Source: an uncultured Erysipelotrichaceae bacterium (GTDB lineage Bacteria > Bacillota_I > Bacilli_A > RF39 > UBA660). From it: a stretch of DNA of 62,519 bases. Below the pieces are notes generated by a model. That model was not told the DNA's origin. It worked only from the letters and a program-made list of their open reading frames with translations, and made no database searches. The position numbers and the translations under genes are program-made. Location: assembly GCA_902797995.1 (NCBI GenBank), contig CADBUX010000003.1:1-62519 (forward strand), given 5' to 3'. Positions 9,338 through 29,860 of the stretch are shown here, piece by piece (position 1 is the first letter of the stretch; each line of letters starts with the position of its first letter).

Positions 9338-10927
9338 GTGGTTATAGTGAAAATAACAAATAAACCTTATCCTTATTATGAACATGAAGAGATTAATAAT
9401 TTGTTAGAATTATTAGAATTAAATAAAAAAAGAAATCCTAATAATATTTCCTTTTCTTATAGAAATGGTATGGATAAAAAAAATAAAACTTTTTCTGATG
9501 TTTATGATGATGTTCTTTATTTAAGTAATTATTTTAATTCTAAATATAAGAATGAACATATTGGTTTAATTGGGGAAAATAGTTATAACTGGATTATTAC
9601 TTTTTTATCAATTGTTTTGAGTGGTAATGTTTGTGTGGTTTTTGATAAAGATTGTGATGAGAAAAAACTTGAAGAACTTTTAAAATATAGTGATACTAAA
9701 ACTATATATTATTCTAATAAATATTGTTCTTTTGTTGGTGATATGAAGTATAAGACTTTTACACTGGAAGATATTAATTCTTTTATAGAAGAAGGTAAAT
9801 CTTTGGAGAATAAATATAAAATAGATAATTGTTCTGATGCTTGTATATTCTTTACATCTGGTACTACTGGTCCTAGCAAGGGGGTTGTTTTATCACAAAA
9901 AAATATAGCTTCAAATATATATGGTGCAAGTAGTTTGTTTAAGCCAGATGGTAGTGTTCTTAGCGTGCTACCTTTTCATCATGCTTTTGGACTTATTACT
10001 TCAGTATTAAAACCATTTTATTATGGAAAAGAGGTTTTTATTAATAACAGTTTAAAATATATAACTAGGGATTTATCTTTAGTTAAACCTAATACTTTAT
10101 TTTTAGTACCTTTATTTGTTGAGACTTTTTATAAACAAATATGGCAAACTGCTAAAAAGAAGAAAAAAGACAAAAAACTTAAAAATGCAATTAAGATTAG
10201 TAATTGTTTATTAAAAGTTGGTATTGATTTAAGAGATAAACTATTTAAGGATGTTAGAGATGTTTTTGGAGGTAATTTAAAATATATAATATGTGGTGGA
10301 GCATATCTTGATAAAAAATATGTTAAATGGTTTAGAAGTGTTGGAATTGAAATATTAAATGGATATGGAATAACTGAGTGCTCCCCAGTTGTATCTGTTA
10401 ATCGTAACAATTATTATAGAGATGGAAGTATTGGAGTAGCTTGCCTTTTCGAAGAAGTTAAGATAATGGATGGAGAGATATGTGTTAAGGGTCCTAATGT
10501 GATGAAGGGATACTATAAAGATAAGAAAAGTACTTCTAGTGTTTTAATAGATGGTTATTTTCATACAGGGGATCTTGGTTATATAGACGAAGATGGTTTT
10601 ATTTTTTTAACTGGTAGAAAAAAGAATATAATTATATTAAGCAATGGAGAAAATGTTAGTCCTGAAGAAATAGAATCTGTTCTTTTAAAAGATGAAGGTG
10701 TTTGTGAAGTAATTGTTCATGAAATGGGTGACAAAATAATAGCTTCAATTTATCCTGAAAAAGAATATTTTGATAATCAGGAGCATTTTGATGATTTAAT
10801 ATATAAATATAATAAAAATAAACCAAAGAATCATCAAATTGCATTTGTTAATTTAAGAAAAACAGAGTTTATTAAGAATAGTAATAAAAAAATAATTAGA
10901 AGTAAGGCATTGGAGGAGAATAATTAG
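9338..10927 (+). CDS. AMP-dependent acyl ligase, probably an acyl-AMP/acyl-ACP ligase. The start may be GTG 9347.
   Basis: FFTSGTTGPSKGVVLS, GYGITE, TGDLGYIDEDGFIFLTGRKKNII. Immediately followed by a carrier protein gene with a 1-nt gap. Confidence 0.85.
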   Translation: MVIVKITNKPYPYYEHEEINNLLELLELNKKRNPNNISFSYRNGMDKKNKTFSDVYDDVLYLSNYFNSKYKNEHIGLIGENSYNWIITFLSIVLSGNVCVVFDKDCDEKKLEELLKYSDTKTIYYSNKYCSFVGDMKYKTFTLEDINSFIEEGKSLENKYKIDNCSDACIFFTSGTTGPSKGVVLSQKNIASNIYGASSLFKPDGSVLSVLPFHHAFGLITSVLKPFYYGKEVFINNSLKYITRDLSLVKPNTLFLVPLFVETFYKQIWQTAKKKKKDKKLKNAIKISNCLLKVGIDLRDKLFKDVRDVFGGNLKYIICGGAYLDKKYVKWFRSVGIEILNGYGITECSPVVSVNRNNYYRDGSIGVACLFEEVKIMDGEICVKGPNVMKGYYKDKKSTSSVLIDGYFHTGDLGYIDEDGFIFLTGRKKNIIILSNGENVSPEEIESVLLKDEGVCEVIVHEMGDKIIASIYPEKEYFDNQEHFDDLIYKYNKNKPKNHQIAFVNLRKTEFIKNSNKKIIRSKALEENN

Positions 10928-10928
10928 T

Positions 10929-11168
10929 ATGAGGAAAGAAGAAATAAAAAAGGAAGTTATTAGTTTAATAGCAGATACTTTAGAAATAGAAAAAGAAAAT
11001 ATAAATGAAAAGTCTAATTTAGTTTCTGACCTTGATGTTGAATCGCTTGATTTAGTAGGATTAGTAGTTGCTTTTGAAGATAAGTATAATGTTGAAATAC
11101 CTGATAGTGAAATAAAAAATCTTCAGACTGTAGAAGATATAATTAGTTTTATAGAAAAAAATGTATAA
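10929..11168 (+). CDS. acyl/peptidyl carrier protein (79 aa)
   Basis: Phosphopantetheine attachment context DLDVESLDLVGLV. The size and acidic helices are typical of ACP/DltC-like carriers. Confidence 0.85.
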   Translation: MRKEEIKKEVISLIADTLEIEKENINEKSNLVSDLDVESLDLVGLVVAFEDKYNVEIPDSEIKNLQTVEDIISFIEKNV

Positions 11169-11595
11169 GCTTTATATAGAAAAAGATGTTACTACTAAAG
11201 AACTTTTTTATAAAGTTATCAATGATTTGGGTATAAAAGATAGTTTAATTTATAATGAGTATGGTAAGCCTTACTTTGAAAATAGTAATTTATTTTTTAA
11301 TATGAGTAGTTCTGGCTGTTATACTGTACTTGCTATATCTAATAAAGAAGTAGGGGTAGATATAGAAAGAATTACTATGAATGATAGTGTAATTGATAGA
11401 ATATGCACAGATGAAGAGAAAAAGATTATTAAAAATGCTGATGATTTTACTATTATGTGGACAAAAAAAGAAAGCTATGTTAAATGGCTTGGAATTGGGC
11501 TTTCTTATGGACTTAAAAATGTTGATACTTTGAAAATAAAAGGGTTTAAAGTAATAAAAAAAGATGATTACTATATAAGTGTTTATGAAAACTAA
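11161..11595 (+). CDS. 4'-phosphopantetheinyl transferase, Sfp-type motifs but only 144 aa
   Basis: GKPYF, FNMSSS (FN[IL]SHS-like), GVDIE, WTKKESYVKW. Overlaps the carrier gene by 8 nt. Confidence 0.75.
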   Translation: MYKLYIEKDVTTKELFYKVINDLGIKDSLIYNEYGKPYFENSNLFFNMSSSGCYTVLAISNKEVGVDIERITMNDSVIDRICTDEEKKIIKNADDFTIMWTKKESYVKWLGIGLSYGLKNVDTLKIKGFKVIKKDDYYISVYEN

Positions 11596-11644
11596 TTTGT
11601 TTTTATTTGTTGTTTGTTACTAATACTTTGATTAAGGAGGATTT

Positions 11645-11881
11645 ATGAATAGAGTAGATGTTAATGATAAAGAAAAAATTATAGCTAATATGACTTATGA
11701 AGAAGCTAGTAGACTTGCTTTGGCTTATGTTCAAAGTATGGGAAAATTATCTTCTATGGAAATGATGGGCCTTTATGTTGATACACTTCAAGATTATTTA
11801 CAAGTTATACAAAATGTTAGAGAAAATATTAATGCTAATGATAATAGTATGCAAGATTTACCGAGTAATGTAATTAGATAA
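11645..11881 (+). CDS. hypothetical small protein (78 aa)
   Basis: Strong SD (TAAGGAGG) 5 nt before the ATG. Last gene of the ligase-ACP-PPTase operon. No family recognised. Confidence 0.5.
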   Translation: MNRVDVNDKEKIIANMTYEEASRLALAYVQSMGKLSSMEMMGLYVDTLQDYLQVIQNVRENINANDNSMQDLPSNVIR

Positions 11882-11930
11882 TTATTGTATGTACTACGTG
11901 GTATATAGGTACTTGAAATGGTTTATAAGT

Positions 11931-11963
11931 AAGAAAGTATGAAATTACATACTTTCTTTTTTT
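11931..11963. terminator. bidirectional intrinsic terminator
   Basis: Stem aagaaagtatg (11931-11941) / catactttctt (11948-11958) followed by a T-run. It overlaps the 3' end of the convergent - strand gene. Confidence 0.6.
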
Positions 11964-12736
11964 ATATATTTTATTTTTTCTATGTTTGAGTTTTTTGATC
12001 TTTTTGTCATGTTGTTATATGCCATGTCTCTTAATTTTTTTTCATTTTCTTTTAAACTTAATTTATTGTCTGGGTAGAAAGGACCATCTATATAAGATAC
12101 TATTTGTATTTTATTATTCTTTCTTTTTTGATATGTATTTGTTACTGTAAACATTGGAACATTATACATTTTTGGATATCTAAACGATACTGATTTAAAG
12201 TTTCTAATAAATGTACAATATGGCCAAATATGTGCTTCAGGATATATTGATATAGAATATCCTTTTTTTATTCTGTTTTCAATTCTTTTTAAAAAGTTTT
12301 TTGAACTTTTTATGTCTCCTGGAATTGGAATAGCACCAAGAAGCTCTATTAAAGGTCCTGTGTGATGCATTGAAATGTTTTCAGGATTAACTATATAGAA
12401 ATTTCTTTTTGGATATATAGCCATACTTGGTATTATGGTGTCTGCAAAAGCTTGTGTATGATTTGCATATATAAATAGACCTTTTCTTTTGTTTTCTTTT
12501 CTATATTTTTTAATTTTCTCTTTACCTATAAATTTATGATTAAATCTAATTTTTAAGTAAAGTACTTTAATGGGCATAGATAGTATATTTTGTGTTATAT
12601 ATGAAAATAATTCCCAAATAAAAGATTTTTGATATTTAAAGTTACCCTCTATTTTTCTAGGAATTATTTTTACAGTAGAAAACTCATCGTTTAATTCATC
12701 TTCATAGTAAATGATTTTTGTTTCTTCTTTTTTCAT
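11945..12736 (-). CDS. lysophospholipid (PlsC-like) acyltransferase family protein
   Basis: ANHTQAFAD (a variant of HX4D) and IYPEAHIW (FPEGT-like) blocks. Confidence 0.65.
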   Translation of the reverse strand: MKKEETKIIYYEDELNDEFSTVKIIPRKIEGNFKYQKSFIWELFSYITQNILSMPIKVLYLKIRFNHKFIGKEKIKKYRKENKRKGLFIYANHTQAFADTIIPSMAIYPKRNFYIVNPENISMHHTGPLIELLGAIPIPGDIKSSKNFLKRIENRIKKGYSISIYPEAHIWPYCTFIRNFKSVSFRYPKMYNVPMFTVTNTYQKRKNNKIQIVSYIDGPFYPDNKLSLKENEKKLRDMAYNNMTKRSKNSNIEKIKYIKKESM

Positions 12737-13602
12737 TTTATCATTTCCTTGTTTTTGGTAGTATAGGTTAGTTTCTTTTTATAAAAGCTTTCATATGTTT
12801 CTTTCCATGAATTAAAGTTTTCCTTTTTCATTTTTTCTATGTTTTCTTTTTTTGTTAGAGTTTTATCTGGATAAATAGGCTTTTTGATATTTACTATGTA
12901 TTCTTGAATAGGAAATCCATCATCTGCAATATTTTTACTATCTTTCATGGTAATAAATATAGGAAGAATAGGAACACTATTTTGTGTTGCTATATGAAAA
13001 GCTCCACTTTTTAATGGTTTTGGTTTTCTATAGTTCCACCACATACTTTCTTCTGGAAAAATAAGTATGGCGTCTTTATTCTTTAATATGGCTTTTGTAG
13101 CGTTAAGAAATTCTGCTAGAACGTGTTTATTTTCACTTAGAGGCAGGGTGTAACAATTACGCATTAATAGTCCATAAAAGCCTGGAAAGTTAGTATAGTT
13201 TCCTTCACGTATTACTTTATATAATTTTGGTTTTTTATTTGTTTTGTTTTCTATAAAAGTTTTTTCAACTGTGAAAGTATCAAAAGGATTGAAATGATTA
13301 CAGGTAATTATAAATCCGGTATCTTTTAGATTTTGTAAGTTTTCTATTCCTTTTGTTTCTTTTATTATTACTTTTTCTTCTTTTATTAATTTATTAAAGA
13401 AATTTATTGCTTGTTTGTTAGCAAAGCGTGCTTTTATTTTTGATGATAGTTTTTTTCTTAAAAAATCTACTTCATTAGGTTTTAATGGAATAGTGGGGGG
13501 ATCATCTTCTACATCAATATCAAATTTACCTTCACGCTCATATTCTTTAATTTTTTCTATTATTCTTAATCGTTCTTTATCTTTTTCCATTATCTTCTCC
13601 AT
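12733..13602 (-). CDS. lysophospholipid (PlsC-like) acyltransferase family protein
   Basis: HX4D motif NHFNPFD and IFPEESMWW block. 4-nt overlap with the downstream acyltransferase gene. Confidence 0.7.
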   Translation of the reverse strand: MEKIMEKDKERLRIIEKIKEYEREGKFDIDVEDDPPTIPLKPNEVDFLRKKLSSKIKARFANKQAINFFNKLIKEEKVIIKETKGIENLQNLKDTGFIITCNHFNPFDTFTVEKTFIENKTNKKPKLYKVIREGNYTNFPGFYGLLMRNCYTLPLSENKHVLAEFLNATKAILKNKDAILIFPEESMWWNYRKPKPLKSGAFHIATQNSVPILPIFITMKDSKNIADDGFPIQEYIVNIKKPIYPDKTLTKKENIEKMKKENFNSWKETYESFYKKKLTYTTKNKEMIK

Positions 13603-14531
13603 CTTTTGTTATTTTTTCTATCATCACCAATACAGCTTGATTCTTTTTTAGCAAGCTCAGTTAAATTTTCAATTACTAAAGCGTCTTTTTTCTTTTTATC
13701 TTCTGGATAATTATCTTTTGTTTTTAATAAATCTTTATAAAATGGTGTTTCTTTTGCATATTTCCAAAAGTATTCTTGATATAAAACATCATCAAAATGC
13801 CATGGTTTGTTAGCCATATTATAATGAATTAATTTTAGCTTTCTTCTTGGAACTTTATCTTTACGTATGGGCATTCTGTTCCAATTATCAGATATAATTT
13901 TTACTCTTCCTTTACAAAGCCTATTTAAGTAATCTTGATCTTGAGCCACTCTAAATTTAATGGTTTCAAGTGAATACAAGAATTTTTCCATAAATTTAAA
14001 CTTTCTCATTTCTTCAAGATTCATGACAATAACTCCAGCATTAAAATAATGTTTGTAGTTAGAAACTCCAACAACTTTTTCAGCATATTCTCTAAATACT
14101 TCGAAATCATTTATAACTCCATCTGTTGCTGCTGCGATTAGGTTCTCTTTTAAATCTATGTTATATAAATCTGCAATATCTGAAAGAATAGTAATATCAC
14201 AATCTAAATATATGACTTTATTGTGCTCAGGATATAATTCAGGTATAAATAATCTAAAGTATGTTGCTGCTGAAAAATAATCTCTTGTATAAAGTTGTTG
14301 TTTTACTTTGTTTATGTGCTTACTTACATTTACAAAATCAATTTTTATATTATCTTGCTGCATTTTTTTAATTATTTTTTGATTTTTTCCCTTGATATTG
14401 GTATATAGTACTTTTATCTCATATAAATTATTTTTTGATGCATTATCTATTAATGATTTTATAGCAACTCCAAGACAAGGAATGTAATTATCATCAACTG
14501 CAAAAAATATAGGTATTCTATTTTTGTTCAT
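13590..14531 (-). CDS. glycosyltransferase family 8 (retaining Gal/Glc transferase-like)
   Basis: N-terminal IPIFFAVDDNY, DxD in YLDCDI, and NAGVIVMNL are typical of GT8. Confidence 0.85.
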   Translation of the reverse strand: MNKNRIPIFFAVDDNYIPCLGVAIKSLIDNASKNNLYEIKVLYTNIKGKNQKIIKKMQQDNIKIDFVNVSKHINKVKQQLYTRDYFSAATYFRLFIPELYPEHNKVIYLDCDITILSDIADLYNIDLKENLIAAATDGVINDFEVFREYAEKVVGVSNYKHYFNAGVIVMNLEEMRKFKFMEKFLYSLETIKFRVAQDQDYLNRLCKGRVKIISDNWNRMPIRKDKVPRRKLKLIHYNMANKPWHFDDVLYQEYFWKYAKETPFYKDLLKTKDNYPEDKKKKDALVIENLTELAKKESSCIGDDRKNNKRWRR

Positions 14532-15363
14532 AGTAACTTCCTTTCAATTTTAGGTATTCTTCTAAATCTTTATCAAATGCATGACAATGCATCTCTTTAT
14601 GTATTTTATCTATGTTCCATTGTTTATAGTTGGTGGTATGAGGGTATGGTAAGAACTTTAATCTTTTGCTAAAGTGACAAATAACAGTTTTTTTTCCATT
14701 TACTTTAGATTGTTCATTAAATCTCCTAGGAAGAAGTTTCTTTTTGGTAGTATTCCAATAGATGGCATCTTGATCTGCAAAAGTAAGTTTTTTCTTTCTT
14801 AACATATCTCTTCCTTTTTTTAAGAGTTTTGTTCTTTTTATAACTTTCATATTCATAAGTAACATTCCAGCATTAATATAATCTGGTCTAATTAACCAAC
14901 AACCATATTTTTCTTTAACTGCAGCATATTCATAACCTTTTATATCGATATTAAATAGCTTTAATATATCATCATTTGCCATGATATCAGTATCTAAATA
15001 AAGAATTTTATCAGGAATATCAGGCACTAGGTCTGCGAATAATCTTATTAAGGTGTAAGGAGTGCAATAAGCCTTTTCATTTGGGCAATTTTTAAATTCT
15101 TTATCATATAGTTTTGTTACATCAATTTTTTTTATTGTGCTCCCAGGTCTTTTATTATTTAAAACCTTTTGCAAAAACTCTATTTGTTCATCTTCAATTG
15201 AAACAAATTCTTTGTTTAGTCTAGTTACATCCATAGTAAATACATAGTAATTTATTATGGCGTTTGTTCTATTTAATATAGATATTAAACCTGTTAAAAT
15301 ACCATCAAATACTTTTTTATTACCACATACTAGTATATTTACTTGTTTCTTTTTTTTACTCAT
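14518..15363 (-). CDS. glycosyltransferase family 8
   Basis: YLDTDIM (DxD), INAGMLLMNM, FADQDA. Overlaps the next GT8 gene by 14 nt. Confidence 0.85.
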   Translation of the reverse strand: MSKKKKQVNILVCGNKKVFDGILTGLISILNRTNAIINYYVFTMDVTRLNKEFVSIEDEQIEFLQKVLNNKRPGSTIKKIDVTKLYDKEFKNCPNEKAYCTPYTLIRLFADLVPDIPDKILYLDTDIMANDDILKLFNIDIKGYEYAAVKEKYGCWLIRPDYINAGMLLMNMKVIKRTKLLKKGRDMLRKKKLTFADQDAIYWNTTKKKLLPRRFNEQSKVNGKKTVICHFSKRLKFLPYPHTTNYKQWNIDKIHKEMHCHAFDKDLEEYLKLKGSYYEQK

Positions 15364-20019: not shown

Positions 20020-20107
20020 GCTATTAAAACTCTTTTTTAAACATTGAAAATGGCGATTTGCATCTAAAAATAAAACCTTTTATAGTGATAAAAAGGAGGT
20101 GATTTTG

Positions 20108-20446
20108 GTGCTTAATCAAATAGTTTTAGTGGGGCGTTTAGTAAGAGATCCTGAAGTTAAAAAAGCTAAAAATGGTAATTCATATTCTCATATTACTTTA
20201 GCAGTTCCTAGAAGTTATAAAAACGTCGATGGTGAGTATGAAACTGATTTTCTTGATTGTACTTTATGGCAACTAATGGCTACTAATACTAAAGAATATT
20301 GCAAAAAAGGTGATATTGTTGGTGTTAAAGGCAGAGTCGAGTCTAAGGTATATGAAAAAGATGATGAAAAGAAATATGTAACTGAAATTATTGCAGAAAA
20401 AGTTACTTTTCTTTCATCAAATAAAACAGAAGCAGAAGAAGTATGA
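20108..20446 (+). CDS. ssb: single-stranded DNA-binding protein, OB-fold only (SsbB-like, no acidic C-terminal tip)
   Basis: LNQIVLVGRLVRDPE..., TDFLDCTLW, VGVKGRV. Start taken at GTG 20108, 8 nt after GGAGG. Ends ...NKTEAEEV without a DDDxPF tail. Confidence 0.85.
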   Translation: MLNQIVLVGRLVRDPEVKKAKNGNSYSHITLAVPRSYKNVDGEYETDFLDCTLWQLMATNTKEYCKKGDIVGVKGRVESKVYEKDDEKKYVTEIIAEKVTFLSSNKTEAEEV

Positions 20447-20490: not shown

Positions 20491-20518
20491 TTTACAAATT
20501 TTGTGTTTTATGTATAAT
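20491..20518 (+). promoter_or_regulatory. sigma-A-like promoter upstream of the small precursor ORF
   Basis: TTTACA (20491-20496), 16-nt spacer, TATAAT (20513-20518). It lies between the ssb terminator and the precursor SD. Confidence 0.5.
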
Positions 20519-20538
20519 ATAGTTAAGGAGGTATTATT

Positions 20539-20691
20539 ATGATAAAATCTGATAACGTTAAAGAAATGAATGTTAAAGATAAGACGAATTCAATACAAAA
20601 CGAAGAAAAAGAATTATCTGAATCTAAGCAAAAACAACTAAAGAAATTAGAGTATTTATTGCAATGTGCTTCTGCTGAGTGTGGATGGTAA
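20539..20691 (+). CDS. candidate RiPP precursor peptide (50 aa): MIKSDNVKEMNVKDKTNSIQNEEKELSESKQKQLKKLEYLLQCASAECGW
   Basis: Hand translation; the ORF is too short for the supplied track. AAGGAGG (20525-20531) sits 7 nt before the ATG. The Lys/Glu-rich leader-like region has no Cys. The only Cys (x2) and Trp residues are in the last 8 residues. It lies directly upstream of the radical SAM operon. Confidence 0.6.
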   Translation: MIKSDNVKEMNVKDKTNSIQNEEKELSESKQKQLKKLEYLLQCASAECGW

Positions 20692-20698
20692 TGAGTTT

Positions 20699-20725
20699 GG
20701 CCTATATATAATATAGGCCGTTTTT
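20699..20725 (+). terminator. hairpin (partial terminator/attenuator) between the precursor ORF and the radical SAM genes
   Basis: Perfect 9-bp stem ggcctatat (20699-20707) / atataggcc (20711-20719), loop ata, followed by gttttta. Confidence 0.55.
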
Positions 20726-20742
20726 ATATTAAGGAGTAATTT

Positions 20743-21771
20743 ATGGAAACAAATGTATTAGTAGATATGAGATCATTATCTTTTATGATTACTGATAAAT
20801 GTAATTTAAAATGTAGTTTTTGTAGCAAAAATGCTGACTTTGCTAATTCTAGATTTATGGATCCTTCTTTTATTGATAAAACTATAAAAGATGCTCTGAA
20901 ATGGGCAGATATTAAGATTATTAACTTAACTGGAGGAGAAGCATTATTGCATCCTAAATTAGATGATATTTTATCAATTATTGATTCATATGGACTTCAA
21001 GCAAGGATTAATACTAATGGAACTCTGTTTAATGATAAGATGATTAATATGCTTAACAAACATAACGCTAAGATGTTTACAATAAGTTTAGATAGCTCAG
21101 ATGCAAAAAAACACGATACAATAAGAGGAATTGATGGAGCTTTTAATAAAACTGTTGAAGGTATAAAAAGGGGAGTTAAGGAGGGCTATAAAATATTTGT
21201 TAAGGCTACTGTTTCTGATGAAAATGTAGATGATATTTATGATTTGATGAAATTTGTAGATGATTTGGGTATATATGGTTTTAGTTTTGGGAGAACAATT
21301 CCTGTTGGTAGAGGAGAAACATATAATTATGCCACAAAAGATTTCTTGAAAAAGTACTTTGATATGGGTAGAAAAACAAGTGAGTATGCACTAACAAGTA
21401 AACTGGAGTTTTTAATTGATGATCCTTTGCGATTTAAATTCGATTGTAGATCTAAAAAGTTACTTGAGCAAAATGATATAAGTGAACTATGGGGTGGTTG
21501 TAGTGCCGGATGTAATTTTCTATATGTAAATATGGATCTTGATGTGTTATCATGTCCTGTTCTTTTAGAACCATGTGGTAATTTGAAAAATAATACTTTA
21601 GAAGAAATATGGAAAAACTCTAACCAATTAATGGAATTTAGGACTCGCATTCACTTAAAAGGTAAATGTGGAAAATGTCAATATAAGAATATATGTGGAG
21701 GTTGCAGGGCATATGCGCTTGCAATTACAAATGATTCACTTGGAGAGGATGCTTTTTGCAAAAGAATATAA
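20743..21771 (+). CDS. radical SAM enzyme with a C-terminal SPASM-type auxiliary Fe-S domain
   Basis: CNLKCSFC (CX3CX2C, codons from 20800), GGEALLHP SAM-binding block. The C-terminal Cys cluster is GGCSAGC...SCP...PCG...GKCGKCQYKNICGGC...FC. Confidence 0.9.
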   Translation: METNVLVDMRSLSFMITDKCNLKCSFCSKNADFANSRFMDPSFIDKTIKDALKWADIKIINLTGGEALLHPKLDDILSIIDSYGLQARINTNGTLFNDKMINMLNKHNAKMFTISLDSSDAKKHDTIRGIDGAFNKTVEGIKRGVKEGYKIFVKATVSDENVDDIYDLMKFVDDLGIYGFSFGRTIPVGRGETYNYATKDFLKKYFDMGRKTSEYALTSKLEFLIDDPLRFKFDCRSKKLLEQNDISELWGGCSAGCNFLYVNMDLDVLSCPVLLEPCGNLKNNTLEEIWKNSNQLMEFRTRIHLKGKCGKCQYKNICGGCRAYALAITNDSLGEDAFCKRI

Positions 21772-24700
21772 TGAAAGTATTGTATATTCATCCAGATACT
21801 AGTGAATTGCGTGAGTCCCAAATCACTATTCCTATTGGAATTGTTTCATTGAGTAAGTTAATTAAAAAAACGGATTTAAATATTGAATATAAGGGAGTCA
21901 ATATACCGATTGAAAAAAAATTAGATCCTTTGTTTTCAATTGGAAAGTACTTGAACAAGGAAATGCCAGATGTTGTTTTAATAGATTTGCATTGGATGAT
22001 TTATTCATATACATCAATTGAGCTAACTAAAATAGTTAAAGACATTAATTCAAACTGCATTACAATTCTTGGTGGTATAACTGCAACAATTTATGCTGAT
22101 GAAATATTAAAAAATTTTAAAACTGTTGATTATATTACTAGGGGTTTTACCGAGGAATGTTTGCCTTGTTTATTAAAGGCAATAATAAGTGAATCAGAAG
22201 TTGATAATATACCAAATTTATCATTTAGAAGGAATAACAAAGTAATTCATAATGAAATTAAGATGATTGATTCTAATGCTTATTATAATTATGATGATTA
22301 TGATTTCTTATTGCATTATGAACAAATGCTAGAAGAACAATCTTCTCACATGGCTGGTAATATTAAAAAGAAGTTAGCCTGGATTCCTACCGGAAGAGGT
22401 TGTCAATATAACTGTTCTTACTGTGGTGGAAATAATAAGATGTTTAAAGAAAAGTTTTGTGTTAACAAAATGATACCTTATAATCCAAATGGTATAGCTA
22501 GTTGTATTGAAAAACTTTATAAAAAATATTCTATAGATATGTTTGGGATTACTCATGATTTTGGTATATTTTCAGAAGAATACTATAATGACATATTTGA
22601 TAATTTATCTAAATTAAGTTTTAAACCTGCGATATATAACTATTTGTTTCAGTTGCCATCAAATGATTATTTTAAAAAATACATGGATATAATTAATCAA
22701 AAAGATAGTATTATTGGATTATCGGTTATTTGTGGTAATGAAAAAGATAGAATAAGAAATGGTAAAGTATTCACTAATAAAGAATTATTTAATTTTTTGG
22801 AATTTTTGACAAACTATGATACAAAAGTTGAACTTTATTTTATTGTTAATCCATATATTGGCGATCAAAATTATCGTGATACTTTAAAATTGATTGAGAA
22901 CATTTTGAAAAAGTACAAATCACGTATGAATTTGAGTGTTTCTGCTAGTTATGAGGTAATACAACCATATTCAAAAAAACAAGAAAATAATAAGACAGTA
23001 TTTACAGGTTTTATGGATTATTATTATAGATATTCAAATAAGTTTTTAGATGATGTACGAAATGGAGAAAATATTGAATATTTAATTGGGGATAAAGATT
23101 ATGATGATCAAGTATATGATAAAATTGTGCAAATAAAAGAATTGGTTAACAAATATGAAAATAGTGTTGATATTTTATATTTATATCCACCTTCAGGTAG
23201 ACAAAAAGAATTTGAAAAAGCTTTAGGCCTTGCCTATATTGAAGCGTATTTGAAACAATATGGATATAAGTCAGTGCAGTTCATACCTAATAATTTAAAT
23301 TATGAAGAAATAATTAAGTCAATTAAAGAAATCAATCCAAAAACAATAGGTATAAGTACATATGATATGAATTATTACTATGCAAAATTACTTTCTAATA
23401 GATTGAAGAAAGAATTAAATGTTCCAATTATAATTGGAGGTCCTACTGGTACTTTTTCGTTTAATTTAGTTTTTAAAGAATGTCCAAGTGTTGATTATAT
23501 TTTGCGTGGTTATGGGGAAGAGTCTACAAAAAAACTCTTAGATTATTTAATAAAAGGAAGAGGTAATTTAGAAAATATACCTGGACTTGTTTATAGGAAT
23601 AACAATGAACTCAAAGAAAACAAATTATATGAGTTGCCACAAGACATTGATTTTTTTCCATCTCCATATTTATCTGATATTGGTTTTCTTCCAGAAAGAA
23701 AAATTGTTTTGACTTCTCGTGGATGTTTCCATAACTGTGTGTATTGTAATTGTGCTGCAATGTGTAATAAGAAAGTATATTTTCACTCTGTTAATAGAGT
23801 AATATCAGAATTAAAGTATATTTCTGATAATGAACCAGGATCATATGTATTAATTGGTGATGATGCTTTTACGTTAAATATAGAAAGAGCTAAGCAAATA
23901 TGCAAGCGAATAATAGATGAAAAAATAAATCTTAAACTGTTTTGTGAAACTAGAGTAGATAGAGTAGACTATGAATTGCTTAATTTAATGAAACAAGCAG
24001 GTGTTATTAAAATAGATTTTGGATTGGAAAGTAGTAATCCTAAAATATTACGAAACATTAAAAAAGTTTTCTATAATCCAAATGATGAGAATTATACAAG
24101 TGAGAGACAGTTTTTAAGAAATTTAAAGGATGTTGTTTCATATTGCAAAAAGTTGGGAATGGATCCGATGGTAAATATTATTAGTGGTTTGCCTGGAGAA
24201 ACTATCGATGACGCTAAAGAAACACTAGATTTTATAAAAAAGTTAGATATTAATTCATATTCGCATAATTATTTGAAATTATATTCAGGCACAAGTTTAT
24301 ATAATGAACATAGAAAGTATAAATACAAATTATGTCATAATGTATTTTCTTTACCATTAATAATCAAGTATCCTTTTGATATAAAAAAAATAACTCCTTT
24401 AAATAATTCAGTTAGTAGAACAGATATTGTCAGAATGAAAAAGGAATTTATAAAACATTGGATGGCTAAAGATTTTTGGACTTGTGATAATATTGAAAAT
24501 CTTGCTCCCCAAGATCTTGATATAAATGAAGAATTATATTTTTATGTTAAAAACAAACAAGAAAAAGAAAAAGTGTTAGGCTTTATTATCAAAAAGGAAA
24601 TTCCATCAAACAATATTGTGTTTATTGAAGATAAAAATGGTGAATTGATATGCTCTAATTATCTTGATCAAGAAAATTATATAAAAATAATAAAGATAAA

Positions 24701-25064
24701 GAATAATGCTTTTGATGTTCCTCAAAACTATTATACTTTGTTACTTGTAGAAAAAATGAATGATACTATAATGAATAGATTTAAAGAATTAAAAGTAAAT
24801 CCTTTTATTAATAGATTTGTATTAATTGAAGGTATTGATAAAGATAAATCTATTAATAATGTAATATATGATTATTGCAATACTCATAATTCTGATAAGA
24901 AGTTGTTATTAAAGTTTTCAAAATATGTCAACTATGAGTTAGATAATCTTGATATTTCTGTTTTTCAGGATATAATATATAATGATATTTTTACTGATGA
25001 AGAAATTGCGATAATTGAAAAGTTTTTGAAGTATTATTTGTTAGGAGTTGATGATGATGAATAA
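21756..25064 (+). CDS. fusion of two B12-binding-type (class B) radical SAM modules plus a roughly 250-aa C-terminal region of unknown function. The start may be TTG 21756 or ATG 21771.
   Basis: There are two separate modules. Each has a Rossmann-like N-terminal part (ITILGGITATIY...ITRGFTEE and TIGISTYD...IIIGGPTGTF...ILRGYGEE). Each part is followed by a CX3CX2C motif: GRGCQYNCSYCGG at 22401-22424 and SRGCFHNCVYC at 23724-23747. ATG 21771 overlaps the upstream stop (TAATG). Confidence 0.8.
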   Translation: MQKNIMKVLYIHPDTSELRESQITIPIGIVSLSKLIKKTDLNIEYKGVNIPIEKKLDPLFSIGKYLNKEMPDVVLIDLHWMIYSYTSIELTKIVKDINSNCITILGGITATIYADEILKNFKTVDYITRGFTEECLPCLLKAIISESEVDNIPNLSFRRNNKVIHNEIKMIDSNAYYNYDDYDFLLHYEQMLEEQSSHMAGNIKKKLAWIPTGRGCQYNCSYCGGNNKMFKEKFCVNKMIPYNPNGIASCIEKLYKKYSIDMFGITHDFGIFSEEYYNDIFDNLSKLSFKPAIYNYLFQLPSNDYFKKYMDIINQKDSIIGLSVICGNEKDRIRNGKVFTNKELFNFLEFLTNYDTKVELYFIVNPYIGDQNYRDTLKLIENILKKYKSRMNLSVSASYEVIQPYSKKQENNKTVFTGFMDYYYRYSNKFLDDVRNGENIEYLIGDKDYDDQVYDKIVQIKELVNKYENSVDILYLYPPSGRQKEFEKALGLAYIEAYLKQYGYKSVQFIPNNLNYEEIIKSIKEINPKTIGISTYDMNYYYAKLLSNRLKKELNVPIIIGGPTGTFSFNLVFKECPSVDYILRGYGEESTKKLLDYLIKGRGNLENIPGLVYRNNNELKENKLYELPQDIDFFPSPYLSDIGFLPERKIVLTSRGCFHNCVYCNCAAMCNKKVYFHSVNRVISELKYISDNEPGSYVLIGDDAFTLNIERAKQICKRIIDEKINLKLFCETRVDRVDYELLNLMKQAGVIKIDFGLESSNPKILRNIKKVFYNPNDENYTSERQFLRNLKDVVSYCKKLGMDPMVNIISGLPGETIDDAKETLDFIKKLDINSYSHNYLKLYSGTSLYNEHRKYKYKLCHNVFSLPLIIKYPFDIKKITPLNNSVSRTDIVRMKKEFIKHWMAKDFWTCDNIENLAPQDLDINEELYFYVKNKQEKEKVLGFIIKKEIPSNNIVFIEDKNGELICSNYLDQENYIKIIKIKNNAFDVPQNYYTLLLVEKMNDTIMNRFKELKVNPFINRFVLIEGIDKDKSINNVIYDYCNTHNSDKKLLLKFSKYVNYELDNLDISVFQDIIYNDIFTDEEIAIIEKFLKYYLLGVDDDE

Positions 25065-26061
25065 ACAAATATTGATTATTGAAATAACATCATATTGTAA
25101 TAGTAGATGTGAAGATTGCTTAAGAGCTGGTTTAAATGATTCTGATTATATGCTTTCATTTAAGGACATTAAAACTGCTATAAAAGAAATAAAAAAGTTT
25201 TCCAATAATTATACTGATTTCGAATTAAAGATTTCTGGGGGAGAGCCTACAATATGGTTAGATAAAACTGAAAAAAAAGATATTACTGATATTTTGTTAG
25301 AATGTGAAAATAATAATCTAAATTATGCTTTAGTTACAAATGGAAAAGTATTTTCAAATAAAGAGCAGTGTAAAGATTTTTTTGATAAAATAAAGTATAA
25401 AGGTATTCACCATTTGAAACTATTTATTACTATTGATAAGTATCATGGAAATTATACAAGTGATGATTCTAATATAATACTTGATAATGTTTTAGAACTT
25501 AATGAATTGGAAAGTTTGGAGTGTTATGTTCAATCTACAGTAACGAAAAGAAATCAAGATAATTTATCACTTGATTTTATTGAAAAGTATACAAAAAAGG
25601 GAATAAAATTTATGTTAAATCCTTTACTTCCTTGGGGAAGAGGAAAGAACCTTATAGATGTGGTCCCATATGTGAATTTAAATAATAACGATAAATCAAC
25701 TTTAGGAGATTATGAAAATTATTATTATGTTCTTGGTAAAGTCAACAATATTTGGGATACTTATGATGAATTTTTGAATATGAATAATTTAGAGACGTTA
25801 AAACGCCTTAATTGTTGTGGTAAAACCATTACTCTTATGGGAAACAAGTATTATTATTCAATGCCTTGTTCTGGCAAAGAGGAATTTTGTTTTGCGACTA
25901 TAGGTAATTTGGACTATAAAAAGTATTTAGTTTTTAAATCAAATAATAAAACGATAAAAAAAATGGCAAATAACAAAATTGCCAATGAGGATTTAATTGA
26001 TAAATGTCCAATTGGATATGGAATTTGTGGGCTTTGTATGGAGAACGATTATGAATTATAA
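25048..26061 (+). CDS. radical SAM enzyme with a Cys-rich C-terminal (SPASM/twitch-like) region
   Basis: CNSRCEDC (codons 25096-25119), ISGGEPTIW. C-terminal Cys residues: NCCGK...PCSGKEEFC...DKCPIGYGICGLC. Overlaps the upstream gene by about 14 nt. Confidence 0.8.
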   Translation: MMMMNKQILIIEITSYCNSRCEDCLRAGLNDSDYMLSFKDIKTAIKEIKKFSNNYTDFELKISGGEPTIWLDKTEKKDITDILLECENNNLNYALVTNGKVFSNKEQCKDFFDKIKYKGIHHLKLFITIDKYHGNYTSDDSNIILDNVLELNELESLECYVQSTVTKRNQDNLSLDFIEKYTKKGIKFMLNPLLPWGRGKNLIDVVPYVNLNNNDKSTLGDYENYYYVLGKVNNIWDTYDEFLNMNNLETLKRLNCCGKTITLMGNKYYYSMPCSGKEEFCFATIGNLDYKKYLVFKSNNKTIKKMANNKIANEDLIDKCPIGYGICGLCMENDYEL

Positions 26062-27139
26062 GCAAAAAAAATTAGCGAGTTTTATTGTGGATTATAGCTT
26101 AAATATTAAGCCTCAAGAAAAAGTTTTTATTAATTATGTCGGTTCAAATAAAGAATTTTTAGAGACGCTTAAATATACAATAGAGGAAAAAAATGCTATT
26201 CCAATTGTTTTTGATATGACTCCATATGAGGAGATTGAATTAATAAAATCGCTTAATGAAGAAGATATTGACCTTTTAATTGATAAAAGCATTGAGCTTA
26301 TAAGTAAATGTGATTCATTTATTTCTTTACTTGAAGATTCTGATTTTATACTTGATAATAAATATCAATATCAAAGTGATTTGTATTATAAAAAATATAA
26401 AAAAGTTATTAGAGACTATCGATTAAAAAAATGTAAATGGATTGGTTTAAGATTACCTAGTGTTCAATTAGCAAGAAAATTTAATATGTCTTATGAAGAA
26501 TTTTGCTCTTTTTATTATGATGTTTGTGGAATTGATTACAAAAGATTAAAGGATGATTATCTATGGCTTGAGGAGTTGATGTCAAATACTAATCATATAG
26601 AGATTAGTAGCGTTGATACTAATATTTCGTTTGATAAAGCAGGAATCTCTGCTCATATATTATCAGGTGAAAAAAATTTACCTGATGGAGAAATATATAC
26701 AGCACCAATTAAAGACACGGTAAATGGTACCATCAGATTTAACGCTGATTCAGTACAAAATGGTTTTAAATTTAAGGACATAAGTTTAAAATTTGTAGAT
26801 GGTAAGATTGAAGAGTTTAATTCTAATAATAATGAATTGTTTAATAATATAATCAATTCTGATGGTGGTAGTAAATATGTTGGAGAATTTGCGATAGGCT
26901 TAAATGATAAAATTAGTGTTCCACATGGCGTTATATTGTATGATGAAAAGATTTTAGGTAGCATTCATTTCGCTTTAGGACAAGCATATGATGATGCATA
27001 TAATGGAAATGATTCATGTTTACATTGGGATTTGGTTCAGGTTCAAAAACCAGAATATGGCGGTGGAAAAGTTATTTTTGATGACGAAATTATTATGCAG
27101 GATGGTATAATTAAAAAAAATAGAGGGAGGAAAAAATGA
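26051..27139 (+). CDS. aminopeptidase, M29 (AmpS/PepS thermophilic metalloprotease) family-like
   Basis: N-terminus KKLASFIVDYSLNIKPQEKVFI, PDGEIYTAP, SKYVGEFAIGLN, SIHFALGQAY and HWDLV resemble M29 conserved blocks. ATG 26051 overlaps the upstream stop. Confidence 0.75.
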   Translation: MNYKQKKLASFIVDYSLNIKPQEKVFINYVGSNKEFLETLKYTIEEKNAIPIVFDMTPYEEIELIKSLNEEDIDLLIDKSIELISKCDSFISLLEDSDFILDNKYQYQSDLYYKKYKKVIRDYRLKKCKWIGLRLPSVQLARKFNMSYEEFCSFYYDVCGIDYKRLKDDYLWLEELMSNTNHIEISSVDTNISFDKAGISAHILSGEKNLPDGEIYTAPIKDTVNGTIRFNADSVQNGFKFKDISLKFVDGKIEEFNSNNNELFNNIINSDGGSKYVGEFAIGLNDKISVPHGVILYDEKILGSIHFALGQAYDDAYNGNDSCLHWDLVQVQKPEYGGGKVIFDDEIIMQDGIIKKNRGRKK

Positions 27140-27609
27140 ATTTTGATAAAATAAAAGTGGATTGTATGACACAAGAATATGCAAAGCAAATTACAAAATG
27201 GAGATACAGAGGAAGGTATTCTTCATATAATTTGCCTTGTTATGAAGAGTGTGTTCAAAAAAAATATGGAATAACTAGAGAAGATACAAAAGATAATTAT
27301 CTTGTATATCTTTTAGATGATGAAGTGGTGTTCTATTTTAACGGTAAGCCAATGGATAATAATAGAATATATATTGGTGTTGGATTAAAGCCAAAGTATT
27401 GTGGCAAAGGTTATGGAAGCCATTTTTTAAAAGATAGTATGAGAATAATGAAGGAGAAATATCCAAATTCTGTATTCTTTCTTGAAGTTAGAAGTTGGAA
27501 CAAAAGAGCAATAAAGTCTTATAAAAAAATAGGCTTTAAAATTACTAATATTGTTATGTCGAAAGATAGATTAGGAAACGATACTGAATTCGTCGAAATG
27601 GAATTATAA
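27136..27609 (+). CDS. GNAT family N-acetyltransferase
   Basis: Acetyl-CoA-binding block GLKPKYCGKGYGSHFL and the following NKRAIKSYKKIGF. ATGA overlap with the aminopeptidase stop. Confidence 0.85.
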   Translation: MNFDKIKVDCMTQEYAKQITKWRYRGRYSSYNLPCYEECVQKKYGITREDTKDNYLVYLLDDEVVFYFNGKPMDNNRIYIGVGLKPKYCGKGYGSHFLKDSMRIMKEKYPNSVFFLEVRSWNKRAIKSYKKIGFKITNIVMSKDRLGNDTEFVEMEL

Positions 27610-27627: not shown

Positions 27628-27656
27628 TTGACATTTTCTTATAATTTATCTATAAT
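27628..27656 (+). promoter_or_regulatory. consensus sigma-A promoter for helD
   Basis: TTGACA (27628-27633), exactly 17-nt spacer, TATAAT (27651-27656). AAGGAG SD before ATG 27686. Confidence 0.65.
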
Positions 27657-27685
27657 AATGCCCAAAAAAGGAGTGCTGAAAAAAC

Positions 27686-29860
27686 ATGGACTATATCTAT
27701 GATGAAGAGAATAAATATTTAGATAAAGTGAATAAGGCTTTAAAAGAAGAACTTGATGAAACTAATCAAGCTCTTAAGGCAGAAGCTGAAAAGATAATAA
27801 GCGTAGATGAAGCAAAAAGAGGAGCTCAATTGCTTAAAGATAGTTTAATGAAAATGTATGCTGAAAGAGTATATAATTTGACAAAAGTTGCTAGTTCTCC
27901 TTATTTTGGCAGGATGGATTTTACGCGTGCAGGTGAAAATGAGACTCAGAAAATATATATAGGAAGAACATCTTTGACAAATGATAACGAAGTATTAATT
28001 GTTGATTGGAGAAGTCCTATTTCCAGTATGTATTATAATAGTAATAAGGGTTATTCTCTATATGAAGCTCCCGAAGGAATTATAAAAGGGTTTGTAGAGT
28101 TAAAGAGACAGATTATTATTGAAAATTATAAAATTAAAAGTATTTTAGACACAGATATAGTAACTAATGATGAAATATTACAAGAGTATTTAAATGTACA
28201 TGCTGATGATAAAATGAAGAATATTATTGCTTCTATTCAAGATGAACAAAACAAAATTATTAGAAAACCTTTGGATAAAAATATAATAGTTCAAGGTGTT
28301 GCTGGTAGTGGCAAAACATCTGTTGCTTTACATAGAATTGCTTATTTGTTATATAACGCTAAAGAAACTGCTAAAAGTGATACTTTTCTTTTGTTAGGAC
28401 CTAACAATTACTTTTTAGATTATATTTCATCTGTTTTGCCCGATCTTGAAACTGAACCTATTTCACAAAAAAGGTATATTGATTTTACATCTGATTATAT
28501 TGAACAAAAAATTTCATTATCAAATAATACTGAGAAATTTAAAAAACAAAAAGAGTTAGACACATATAATAAAGTAAGGCTATTTAAAAATTCATTAGAA
28601 TATAAGGATGCAATTGAAGCATTTATGAATGACTATTTTAATGGTAGTTTTATTGATAAGGGAATTATCTTTGATGGTGTAGAAGTATTTGATAGAGATT
28701 TCATAATTTCTGCATTAACTTCTGGTGCTTTTTCTAAATTGAATTATGATCGAGCAAAAGAGATAACATTGCGAAGTTTTATAGATAGACAAAATCGTAT
28801 TTATAATTATTTAAAAAATAAATATCGCACTATTTATACTTCTTCAGATGCTAGTGTAGAGGAAAAAGAAGCCGCTAAAAGAAAAACTTTAGAAATATAT
28901 GATTTGATATATAAAAATGGCGAAAAGATAATAAAGGATTATTATAAGAAACTTGATGCTAAAATTACTGATATATATAAGAAGTTTCTTATCTCATCTG
29001 ATAATTATATTAAATGTTTAAATAGCGAAGAGATGCAAATGTTTAAGAGGGTTAGTATTAATAATAGTGGTAGATTAAAATTATCTGGAGAGGATTTGCC
29101 TGCTTTAAATTATATGAAATATCTTTTATCTGGGAAAAAAACAAAATATAGACAAATTGCAATTGATGAAGCGCAAGATTATGGTTTGTTCCATTATTAT
29201 GCTTTACTAAAAGCAAATCCTGATGCTAAATTCTCAATATATGGTGACTTAGCTCAAACAATATATCAATATACCAATATTACAAATTGGGAAAAAGTAG
29301 TTGATCAAATCTTTGATGGTGATTGTGAACTTTTAAATTTAAACAAAAGTTATCGTACCACTAGAGAGATAACTGATAATGCAAATGCTATTTTGAATCA
29401 TTTAAAACTAGAAAAAGCAAATTCGGTTGAAAGGCACGGAGAAACTGTTGAGTATAACAATGCTAAGTACTCTGAAGCAGAATTTCGCGATGTGGTTAAC
29501 GATTGGATTAATAGTGGATATAAAAGTGTTGCTATTATATGTAAAACAGAAAAGGAAGCTTTAAATCTATATAAAAATTTACTTAAAAGTAATATTTCCA
29601 TTTCATATCTAGATGATAAAACTTCAAAATATGAAAGTGGTGTGTATGTAACAACAAGTATTGCAGCAAAAGGTTTAGAATTTGATGCTGTAATTATAAA
29701 TGATGCTTCATGTACTGTTTATAATTCATCTAATAATATGGATATGCATTTATTATATGTTGCATTAACGAGGGCACTACACGAATTAAAAGTTCTTTAT
29801 AGTAATGAGATTACTGAACCTTTAAAAGAAAATGCACAGTCTAGAAATAGACAAAGATAG
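27686..29860 (+). CDS. helD: UvrD-like helicase of the HelD type (helicase IV / RNA polymerase recycling ATPase)
   Basis: N-terminal coiled coil followed by SPYFGRMDF, Walker A GVAGSGKTSVALHRIAYLLY, IDEAQD, and C-terminal YVALTRALHEL. Confidence 0.85.
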   Translation: MDYIYDEENKYLDKVNKALKEELDETNQALKAEAEKIISVDEAKRGAQLLKDSLMKMYAERVYNLTKVASSPYFGRMDFTRAGENETQKIYIGRTSLTNDNEVLIVDWRSPISSMYYNSNKGYSLYEAPEGIIKGFVELKRQIIIENYKIKSILDTDIVTNDEILQEYLNVHADDKMKNIIASIQDEQNKIIRKPLDKNIIVQGVAGSGKTSVALHRIAYLLYNAKETAKSDTFLLLGPNNYFLDYISSVLPDLETEPISQKRYIDFTSDYIEQKISLSNNTEKFKKQKELDTYNKVRLFKNSLEYKDAIEAFMNDYFNGSFIDKGIIFDGVEVFDRDFIISALTSGAFSKLNYDRAKEITLRSFIDRQNRIYNYLKNKYRTIYTSSDASVEEKEAAKRKTLEIYDLIYKNGEKIIKDYYKKLDAKITDIYKKFLISSDNYIKCLNSEEMQMFKRVSINNSGRLKLSGEDLPALNYMKYLLSGKKTKYRQIAIDEAQDYGLFHYYALLKANPDAKFSIYGDLAQTIYQYTNITNWEKVVDQIFDGDCELLNLNKSYRTTREITDNANAILNHLKLEKANSVERHGETVEYNNAKYSEAEFRDVVNDWINSGYKSVAIICKTEKEALNLYKNLLKSNISISYLDDKTSKYESGVYVTTSIAAKGLEFDAVIINDASCTVYNSSNNMDMHLLYVALTRALHELKVLYSNEITEPLKENAQSRNRQR

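Follow-up and report, generated by a model that had tools for sequence, protein, structure and literature searches.

We analyzed a window of 62,519 nucleotides (nt), contig CADBUX010000003.1 of assembly GCA_902797995.1, from an uncultured Erysipelotrichaceae bacterium (GTDB RF39; UBA660). At positions 20491 to 27609, between ssb (20099–20446) and helD (27686–29860), this AT-rich chromosomal DNA (GC content ∼27%) carries a compact gene cassette that we regard as very probably responsible for the biosynthesis of an undescribed family of ribosomally synthesized peptides with post-translational modifications (RiPPs) matured by radical S-adenosylmethionine (SAM) enzymes. Its 50-residue open reading frame (ORF) is under selection at the amino acid level and is co-inherited with four radical SAM modules. 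By profile or fold comparison with the Protein Data Bank (PDB), the SPASM enzyme, the third radical SAM enzyme, and the C-terminal cobalamin (B12)-type module are all nearest to peptide maturases or methylases. The predicted product is a small peptide of about 8 to 13 residues, N-capped and cross-linked, most probably a secreted antimicrobial or signaling molecule. A sequence-only reading had already described a compact unit in this position, and we recovered it with all of its features, each of which lies on the forward strand.

The evidence begins with the precursor peptide. Its gene (20539–20691) encodes MIKSD...LEYLLQCASAECGW, in which residues 1–37 form a variable, Lys/Glu-rich leader and residues 38–50 (EYLLQCASAECGW) an invariant block, with a minimal conserved core at residues 43–50 (CASAECGW). 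The sequence-only reading had asked whether homologous operons keep a small upstream ORF with a C-x4-C-G-W tail, and we found one in 11 of 11 distinct homologous loci for which upstream DNA could be read (L017–L023, L026, and L028–L030). In L017–L020 these ORFs are 29 to 37 residues long and end in IEYLLRCASCECGW; the peptide of L021 ends in LEYLLQCASAECGW and that of L022 in IEYLLQCASVECGW. Codons were compared over eight loci: at nine of the 11 invariant positions they vary while the amino acid does not, and therefore selection acts on the peptide sequence.

The database searches and the loci together yielded about 27 distinct peptides of 28 to 88 residues. They share the motif LL-x-C-[A/V/G]-S-x-E-C-G-W, which is C-terminal in nearly all members; the most divergent peptide reads SFDCGSAECGW. 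Alignments showed 14 to 50 variable, Glu/Lys-rich residues at the N-terminus, followed by 13 C-terminal residues that are invariant or nearly so, and the Cys-X3-Glu unit (C43-A-S-x-E47) is invariant across all family members. Profile searches with the peptide alignment, covering 5.8 + 1.84 billion proteins, returned only tail-bearing peptides (17 matches in the word-indexed database and eight further ones in the exhaustive search), and a peptide identical to that of the window occurs on 23 metagenome contigs. A DNA pattern scan of metagenome contigs with the back-translated tail gave no match; this collection evidently lacks the contigs of the peptides derived from the Joint Genome Institute (JGI). 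The tail sequences were not mentioned in the indexed literature that we searched.

Three variants add to this picture. The 88-residue precursor P0045 of L028 (2141–2407) contains two in-frame copies of the core (LEKLLKCASMECGW), and it is the only precursor in which the Trp is internal, followed directly by Asp or Glu in the two copies (CGWD and CGWE); the contig stops right after this gene, so the enzymes lie outside the sequence. One ORF with several cores is what one expects of a RiPP precursor, not of a leader peptide with a regulatory role. The L026 peptide ends in RDSFDCGSAECGW and has no xLL motif. That locus also shows one B12 protein only, of the type with the C-module and orphan domain described below, and the loss of the LL motif and that of the N-module may be linked, on the strength of one locus whose contig ends there. 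A 39-residue peptide on a 942-nt contig, P0022, ends in ...CASCECPIV in place of CECGW, which probably reflects a decayed copy or a variant that arose in sequencing or assembly.

The enzymes encoded behind the peptide were assigned with Pfam and NCBIfam, taking curated family cut-offs as the threshold for membership. Both collections agreed with the proposed set of a SPASM radical SAM protein, a tandem B12-type radical SAM protein, a second Cys-rich radical SAM protein, an M29 aminopeptidase, and a GNAT acetyltransferase, and the reported overlaps of starts and stops were confirmed at 1, 11, 11, and 4 nt. Each of the four radical SAM modules has a conserved CxxxCxxC motif (C20/24/27, C211/215/218, C652/656/659, and C15/19/22, in gene order). 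The claim that precursor tail and enzyme set lie outside named families also held: no protein of the cassette reaches a curated NCBIfam cut-off, and the peptide matches no model in Pfam or NCBIfam.

The first enzyme is a radical SAM/SPASM maturase of 342 residues (20743–21771; PF04055 and PF13186, the latter at 27 bits against a cut-off of 21.5). Its radical SAM cluster is bound by C20/C24/C27, and nine invariant Cys in the C-terminal part (residues 253–339) would be enough for two auxiliary clusters. The radical SAM domain begins at residue 13–16, and there is no N-terminal RiPP recognition element (RRE). The nearest solved relatives in a PDB profile search were SkfB, PqqE, CteB, and SuiB. 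Its top NCBIfam matches, all below cut-off, were AhbD (183/500, score over cut-off), NirJ2 (168.2/500), TIGR04053, ScmF, and WgkB. The PapB model aligned over the full length at 84.5/340, again below cut-off, as were StsB (100.1/625), NirJ (116/515), AlbA (82/850), PqqE (TIGR02109, 81/381.35), and the mycofactocin model TIGR03962 (75.8/265).

The second enzyme (21771–25064; 1097 residues from ATG) carries PF02310 matches in two stretches, one in each half, plus PF04055, and the Cys of both of its cluster motifs are invariant. Its N-module (residues 1–465; 21771–23165), with B12-binding and radical SAM parts, matches only the uncharacterized family TIGR04190, below cut-off (234/500). The C-module (about residues 466–860; 23166–24350) has the same two parts and is of the class B methylase type; its nearest solved structures are the methylases CysS and TokK, and also AprD4, and its NCBIfam matches fall below cut-off (BchE 167.4/481.35, ApyD 147.1/750, TIGR03975 139.6/281.85). 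Full-length relatives numbered only four among 5.8 billion proteins (45–49% identity). The description of a tandem B12 fusion applies to the window, where it is one protein, but not to L021 (4494–7797), L022 (1373–4790), L023 (7743–10407), or L029 (4973–7817), where the modules are separate adjacent genes, in reversed order in L029. Since the modules are separate in these other loci, the 1097-residue protein is a recent, lineage-specific fusion of two genes.

The fusion ends in an orphan domain of about 240 residues (24351–25064), which AlphaFold2 models with confidence (pLDDT 77.5). A fold search against the PDB returned no match (TM < 0.2), a Pfam search at E up to 10 gave nothing useful, and the idea that the domain is an RRE found no support there. 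It is kept in all homologues of the second B12 protein and is a candidate peptide-binding domain. Its conserved C-terminus, FLKYYLLG (25020–25061), resembles the EYLL recognition-like motif of the peptide, which may be a coincidence or a self-mimic.

The third radical SAM enzyme (25054–26061; 335 residues) matches PF04055 below cut-off, plus PF13353. Its cluster Cys (C15/C19/C22) are invariant, as are C255, C325, and C328; C269 is nearly invariant, and C272 is a further candidate, so that C255, C269/272, C325, and C328 form one probable auxiliary cluster. The best fold match of its AlphaFold2 model (pLDDT 85.4) was the RiPP epimerase EpeE (TM 0.56–0.61, E = 5.5e-10, 15–17% identity), ahead of anSME and ChlB, and the best PDB profile match, using a 13-sequence profile, was YydG (4.7e-11, residues 4–196). 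The C-terminal part returned nothing useful from Pfam at E up to 10. A scan of metagenome contigs with the third-radical-SAM profile gave one true relative, on a short contig and flanked by mobile-element fragments. At L031 (1–3622), a lone homologue (34% identity) lies between a transposase fragment and a group II intron reverse-transcriptase-like ORF and may be a mobilized or decaying copy.

The last two genes encode a divergent M29 aminopeptidase of the AmpS/AmpT type (26051–27139; 362 residues; PF02073, 124 bits) and a small GNAT acetyltransferase (27136–27609; 157 residues; PF00583). Alignment of the former to AmpS (1zjc) showed that the GE, GE, and H motifs of the metal-binding region are kept, followed by an HWD motif. 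The latter is weakly RimI/Naa-like: its best NCBIfam match is RimI, at 43.9 bits and below cut-off, and its best PDB matches, all weak, are N-alpha-acetyltransferases (Naa50 and SSO0209). M29 is kept in six loci of the main clade and GNAT in seven; among the loci compared the two genes are always paired, with their mutual order swapped in some.

Comparing all loci against each other separated a conserved core from its accessories. The main clade shares the peptide, SPASM protein, both B12 modules, third radical SAM protein, M29, and GNAT, and flanking genes are not conserved among loci. L017–L020, the contigs of the fusion's four relatives, have the same gene set as the window. A scan of representative genomes of 185,579 species, made with two N-module motifs, added two further loci, L021 (in a metagenome-assembled genome (MAG) with the label uncultured Clostridium) and L022 (in a MAG from the Bacilli), a number to be read as a minimum. 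The more distant variants L026, L029, and L030 came from searches with the third radical SAM protein. In L026 (838–5610) the peptide is followed by a SPASM protein (40% identity) and a third radical SAM protein (34%), then by a major facilitator superfamily (MFS)-like membrane protein, and M29/GNAT are replaced. L029 and L030 (36% GC) encode a SPASM protein (38%), a third radical SAM protein (27%), and B12 proteins of the C-module (39%) and N-module (44%) types, together with a class I SAM methyltransferase; M29, GNAT, and HelD are not present.

Peptide, SPASM, B12, and third radical SAM genes thus stay together at 27–44% identity and under changed gene order (L029, L026). From these comparisons, the conserved core comprises the peptide and four radical SAM modules (one SPASM, two B12-type, and one EpeE/YydG-like), and M29 plus GNAT, the methyltransferase, and the MFS-like transporter are clade-specific accessories. 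The sequence-only reading had stressed the combination of these enzymes with an aminopeptidase and an acetyltransferase; the combination is present in the window, but M29 and GNAT are confined to one clade and lie outside the universal core. The cassette family is rare and patchy, and its hosts are low-GC Bacilli, uncultured and known from rumen and gut metagenomes.

A strong Shine-Dalgarno sequence, AAGGAGG (20525–20531), was read directly 7 nt before the peptide ATG, and GGAGG-type sites also precede the peptide genes of L017–L020, L026, and L029. The hairpin noted behind the ORF is real (10 bp at 20698–20720, then a T-run to 20726; −13.5 kcal/mol, z = −3.3), and stable hairpins of unrelated sequence stand directly 3′ of the peptide gene in seven of eight loci (z −3.2 to −5.3), L029 having none. 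The hairpin is probably a partial terminator setting the precursor-to-enzyme ratio. The promoter-like signal is present as TTTACA-16 nt-TATAAT (20491–20518), with 11 of 12 positions matched, but such matches are not enriched in the window (56 found against 63 expected from shuffles); because they are equally common in shuffles, the call follows from the position of the site, about 20 nt upstream of the Shine-Dalgarno sequence. An Rfam scan of the window found two tRNAs only, distant from the locus, and no riboswitch or leader RNA.

Based on the enzyme set and the peptide family, we propose how such a pathway might proceed. The peptide gene would be transcribed in excess of the enzymes through the partial terminator, and the variable acidic/basic N-terminal part with its (E/D)xLL motif would act as leader and recognition sequence. 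In Cys-X3-Asp/Glu motifs, PapB joins Cys to Asp or Glu (PMC9413430), and it also connects an internal Cys with the carbon adjoining the C-terminal carboxylate (PMC12373016). Because of this chemistry, the invariant Cys-X3-Glu, and the C-terminal Cys-Gly-Trp, we propose that the SPASM enzyme makes two carboxylate-directed thioethers, Cys43–Glu47 and, at the C-terminus, Cys48–Trp50. In P0045 the internal Trp is followed by Asp or Glu, and thus a carboxylate stays near the second Cys.

The EpeE/YydG-like enzyme may epimerize at least one core residue or perform another hydrogen-atom abstraction, which is equally open because the Cys that would act as hydrogen donor was not identified. The two cobalamin-type modules would C-methylate unactivated carbons or, less likely, form a C–C link; candidate methylation sites are the variable small hydrophobic positions (A/V/G and C/A/V/M) and the Trp. 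M29 would then trim the unmodified leader residue by residue, working inward from the N-terminus to the point where modified residues stop it, and GNAT would acetylate the newly exposed alpha-amine. Three other chemistries were considered. A triceptide-type cyclophane (aromatic-X-X) was rejected since the Trp is the last residue in nearly all members, and Tyr39 was rejected as a PQQ-like partner since this position varies among Y, E, and K. A C-terminal decarboxylation of the AviCys or mycofactocin kind was deemed unlikely, as one precursor has internal cores.

Several observations weigh against the assignment to a RiPP pathway. The cassette, its peptide, and its putative product are known here from genes, and family resemblance is what assigns a reaction to each enzyme. 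No RRE or PqqD-like domain was found by Pfam or NCBIfam in any cassette protein, and the orphan domain has no fold match to take that place. The best NCBIfam matches of two enzymes are tetrapyrrole enzymes (AhbD, NirJ2, and BchE), though far below cut-off, and B12-type radical SAM enzymes do more than methylate. The resemblance of the third radical SAM protein to EpeE is moderate (TM ∼0.6), and no counterpart of the hydrogen-donor Cys of EpeE was found in it, its invariant non-motif Cys being probable cluster ligands. Finally, the cassettes of the main clade have no exporter, immunity gene, or regulator. In L026, the MFS-like membrane protein after the third radical SAM gene is possible support for export. 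The earlier statement that these three functions are missing stands for exporter and regulator, neither of which is encoded inside the unit in the window, but for immunity it needs a caveat, as a HelD-type helicase adjoins the cassette in four loci.

A bolder version of the RiPP assignment would make the cassette a new RiPP class rather than a family. The eight-residue core C-x-S-x-E-C-G-W would be worked by four radical SAM sites, with at least one reaction unprecedented for peptides (e.g. a link from Cys to the C-terminal Trp, or cross-linking that depends on cobalamin), RNA polymerase as the target of the product, and HelD as self-protection. We consider this unlikely as a whole.

It is also improbable that the cassette makes an intracellular, peptide-derived cofactor or redox molecule, comparable to mycofactocin, pyrroloquinoline quinone (PQQ), or cysteine tryptophylquinone (CTQ), with the C-terminal residues cross-linked (e.g. 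Glu or Cys with Trp) and the fragment excised by the aminopeptidase. Such a product would suit the same missing exporter, immunity gene, and regulator, the housekeeping chromosomal context, the tiny and nearly always C-terminal core, and the low-score matches of the SPASM protein to PqqE and MftC-type models, and a peptidase also belongs to the PQQ and mycofactocin pathways. However, the PqqE and mycofactocin models both score far below cut-off, and the two-core precursor with its internal Trp is unfit for C-terminal decarboxylation. A cofactor should moreover track its dependent enzymes, yet we found no conserved partner dehydrogenase among the loci, the accessories differ by clade and include the MFS-like protein of L026, and the family is extremely rare and patchy, with two loci in 185,579 species as the lower bound.

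The helD gene (27686–29860) invites a third reading, in which it forms one functional unit with the cassette, the mature peptide targets RNA polymerase, and the HelD motor protects the producer, as HelR does against rifamycins. HelD-type helicases, which recycle RNA polymerase, adjoin the cassette in four divergent loci, downstream in the window (27628–29860 with the promoter), L017 (16174–18414), and L022 (7332–9539), and upstream in L023 (4188–6383). Their mutual identities are only 34–41%, and the four loci show no other flanking synteny. Nor did we find a terminator separating the GNAT gene from helD. Yet helD in the window has its own perfect consensus promoter (27628–27656, 12 of 12), its product passes the cut-off of the housekeeping equivalog HelD_BACSU (432.8 bits against 419), and HelD is absent beside L021 and from the 23-kb L029-type contig. 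All four loci come from related low-GC Bacilli, in which inherited synteny is possible and would be the simplest reading of the adjacency. A functional unit is quite doubtful.

Least of all do we expect the substrate of the enzymes to be something other than a peptide (e.g. a tetrapyrrole, lipid, or cofactor), with the small ORF as an attenuation leader peptide controlling the hairpin: a short ORF before a terminator-like hairpin is also attenuator anatomy, and AhbD/NirJ2 and BchE are the top NCBIfam matches of the SPASM protein and the B12 C-module, but those scores lie two to three times below curated cut-offs, the nearest solved relatives of the SPASM and third radical SAM proteins are peptide maturases, attenuators conserve regulatory codon runs and not a 13-residue sequence with synonymous-only drift, the tail is kept where hairpins are unrelated in sequence and in L029 with no hairpin at all, and one precursor carries two cores in one ORF. 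The sequence-only reading had allowed that the proteins might fall cleanly into non-RiPP families; with AhbD, NirJ2, BchE, and TIGR04190 all below their cut-offs, they do not. No heme or siroheme genes were found near the cassette loci.

Taking the cassette as a RiPP pathway, we compared it with the known systems it most resembles. Radical SAM-modified RiPPs are well known as a kind, and uncharacterized families among them are often mined. Ranthipeptides and sactipeptides (PapB/freyrasin, CteB, SkfB, and AlbA) likewise have a short precursor with a Cys-rich C-terminal core and a SPASM maturase whose Cys would suffice for two auxiliary clusters. The invariant Cys-X3-Glu has the same form as the Cys-X3-Asp/Glu motifs of PapB, and the second Cys stands two residues before the C-terminal carboxylate, a position that PapB can also cross-link. 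The cassette differs in that its maturase falls well short of every family cut-off, that the searches detected no RRE, that three more radical SAM modules are obligatory partners, and that an aminopeptidase apparently removes the leader; the thioethers themselves are a prediction.

Epipeptides (YydF with YydG/EpeE in Bacillus subtilis) share a small precursor with its active part at the C-terminus, low-GC Bacilli as hosts, and the enzyme nearest to our third radical SAM protein by fold and profile. This similarity is moderate, however, the cassette has no YydH protease or YydIJ transporter, and its peptide is unrelated to YydF. In enzyme logic the cassette also resembles proteusins of the polytheonamide type, in which a radical SAM epimerase and cobalamin-dependent radical SAM C-methyltransferases serve one precursor: here one ribosomal peptide would meet an epimerase-like enzyme together with two class B radical SAM modules. 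The matches of the cassette include ApyD and TIGR03975, a RiPP C-methyltransferase subfamily. The latter reaches only 139.6/281.85, though, the nitrile-hydratase-like or Nif11 leader is not present, the core has 8–13 residues as against ∼50, and SPASM, M29, and GNAT are added.

Microviridins and class III lanthipeptides resemble the cassette in tailoring logic only. Microviridins are N-acetylated by a cluster-encoded GNAT once the leader is removed, and in class III lanthipeptides a zinc aminopeptidase of the AplP type takes the leader off step by step. Their core chemistry is ATP-grasp or lanthionine-based, however, the lanthipeptide peptidase belongs to M1 and not M29, and the roles of M29 and GNAT in the cassette are putative. 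Mycofactocin and PQQ are similar in that a SPASM enzyme works at the very C-terminal end of a small peptide, a peptidase belongs to the set, and there is no exporter. They differ in their MftB/PqqD chaperone, Gly-Val-Tyr or Glu-X3-Tyr motif, and partner oxidoreductases, none of which the very patchy cassette has: its tail is CGW with no MftB/D/E/F partners, PqqB/C/D are likewise not present, and the Tyr of EYLL is not invariant.

Literature searches on the tail, M29 with radical SAM RiPPs, HelD resistance, and aminopeptidase/GNAT/epimerase combinations found no description of the cassette family. We therefore regard the cassette as a new family inside a known kind, the radical SAM RiPPs. What would be unusual is the presence of four radical SAM active sites on a core of 8–13 residues and the union of a SPASM, an EpeE-like, and two class B modules. 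Having no detectable RRE and a dedicated M29 and GNAT pair is also unusual. If the proposal is right, a very short scaffold receives several radical modifications (thioethers, epimerization or another hydrogen abstraction, and cobalamin-dependent alkylations) from a compact pathway of about 7 kb, and a self-limiting aminopeptidase step and N-acetylation follow. Because each enzyme is far from characterized relatives, new peptide chemistry, or biocatalysts for stapling and methylating short peptides, could follow. The naturally split and fused B12 modules and the orphan domain would offer handles on leader recognition by radical SAM maturases that have no RRE. The specialized metabolites of the producers, uncultured low-GC Bacilli of rumen and gut, are almost unknown, and a functional role for the recurrent HelD neighbor would connect a RiPP with the protection of RNA polymerase.

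In its wider setting in the window the cassette has a housekeeping chromosomal context: the suf operon and ssb precede it, and helD follows. A reading of the cassette as a defense system was dropped, as PADLOC gave only generic similarities to viperin, B12-radical-SAM, and UvrD proteins. The ssb gene upstream (20099–20446) encodes a short single-stranded DNA-binding protein (SSB) of 115 residues, without the usual long acidic C-terminal tail, whose best matches are 112-residue SsbB-like models. Upstream of the suf operon, positions 9338–15363 encode an AMP-binding enzyme, a carrier protein, and a phosphopantetheinyl transferase and, on the opposite strand, two acyltransferases and two GT8 glycosyltransferases; together these genes may form a small carrier-protein-dependent cluster for glycolipid or cell-envelope modification.

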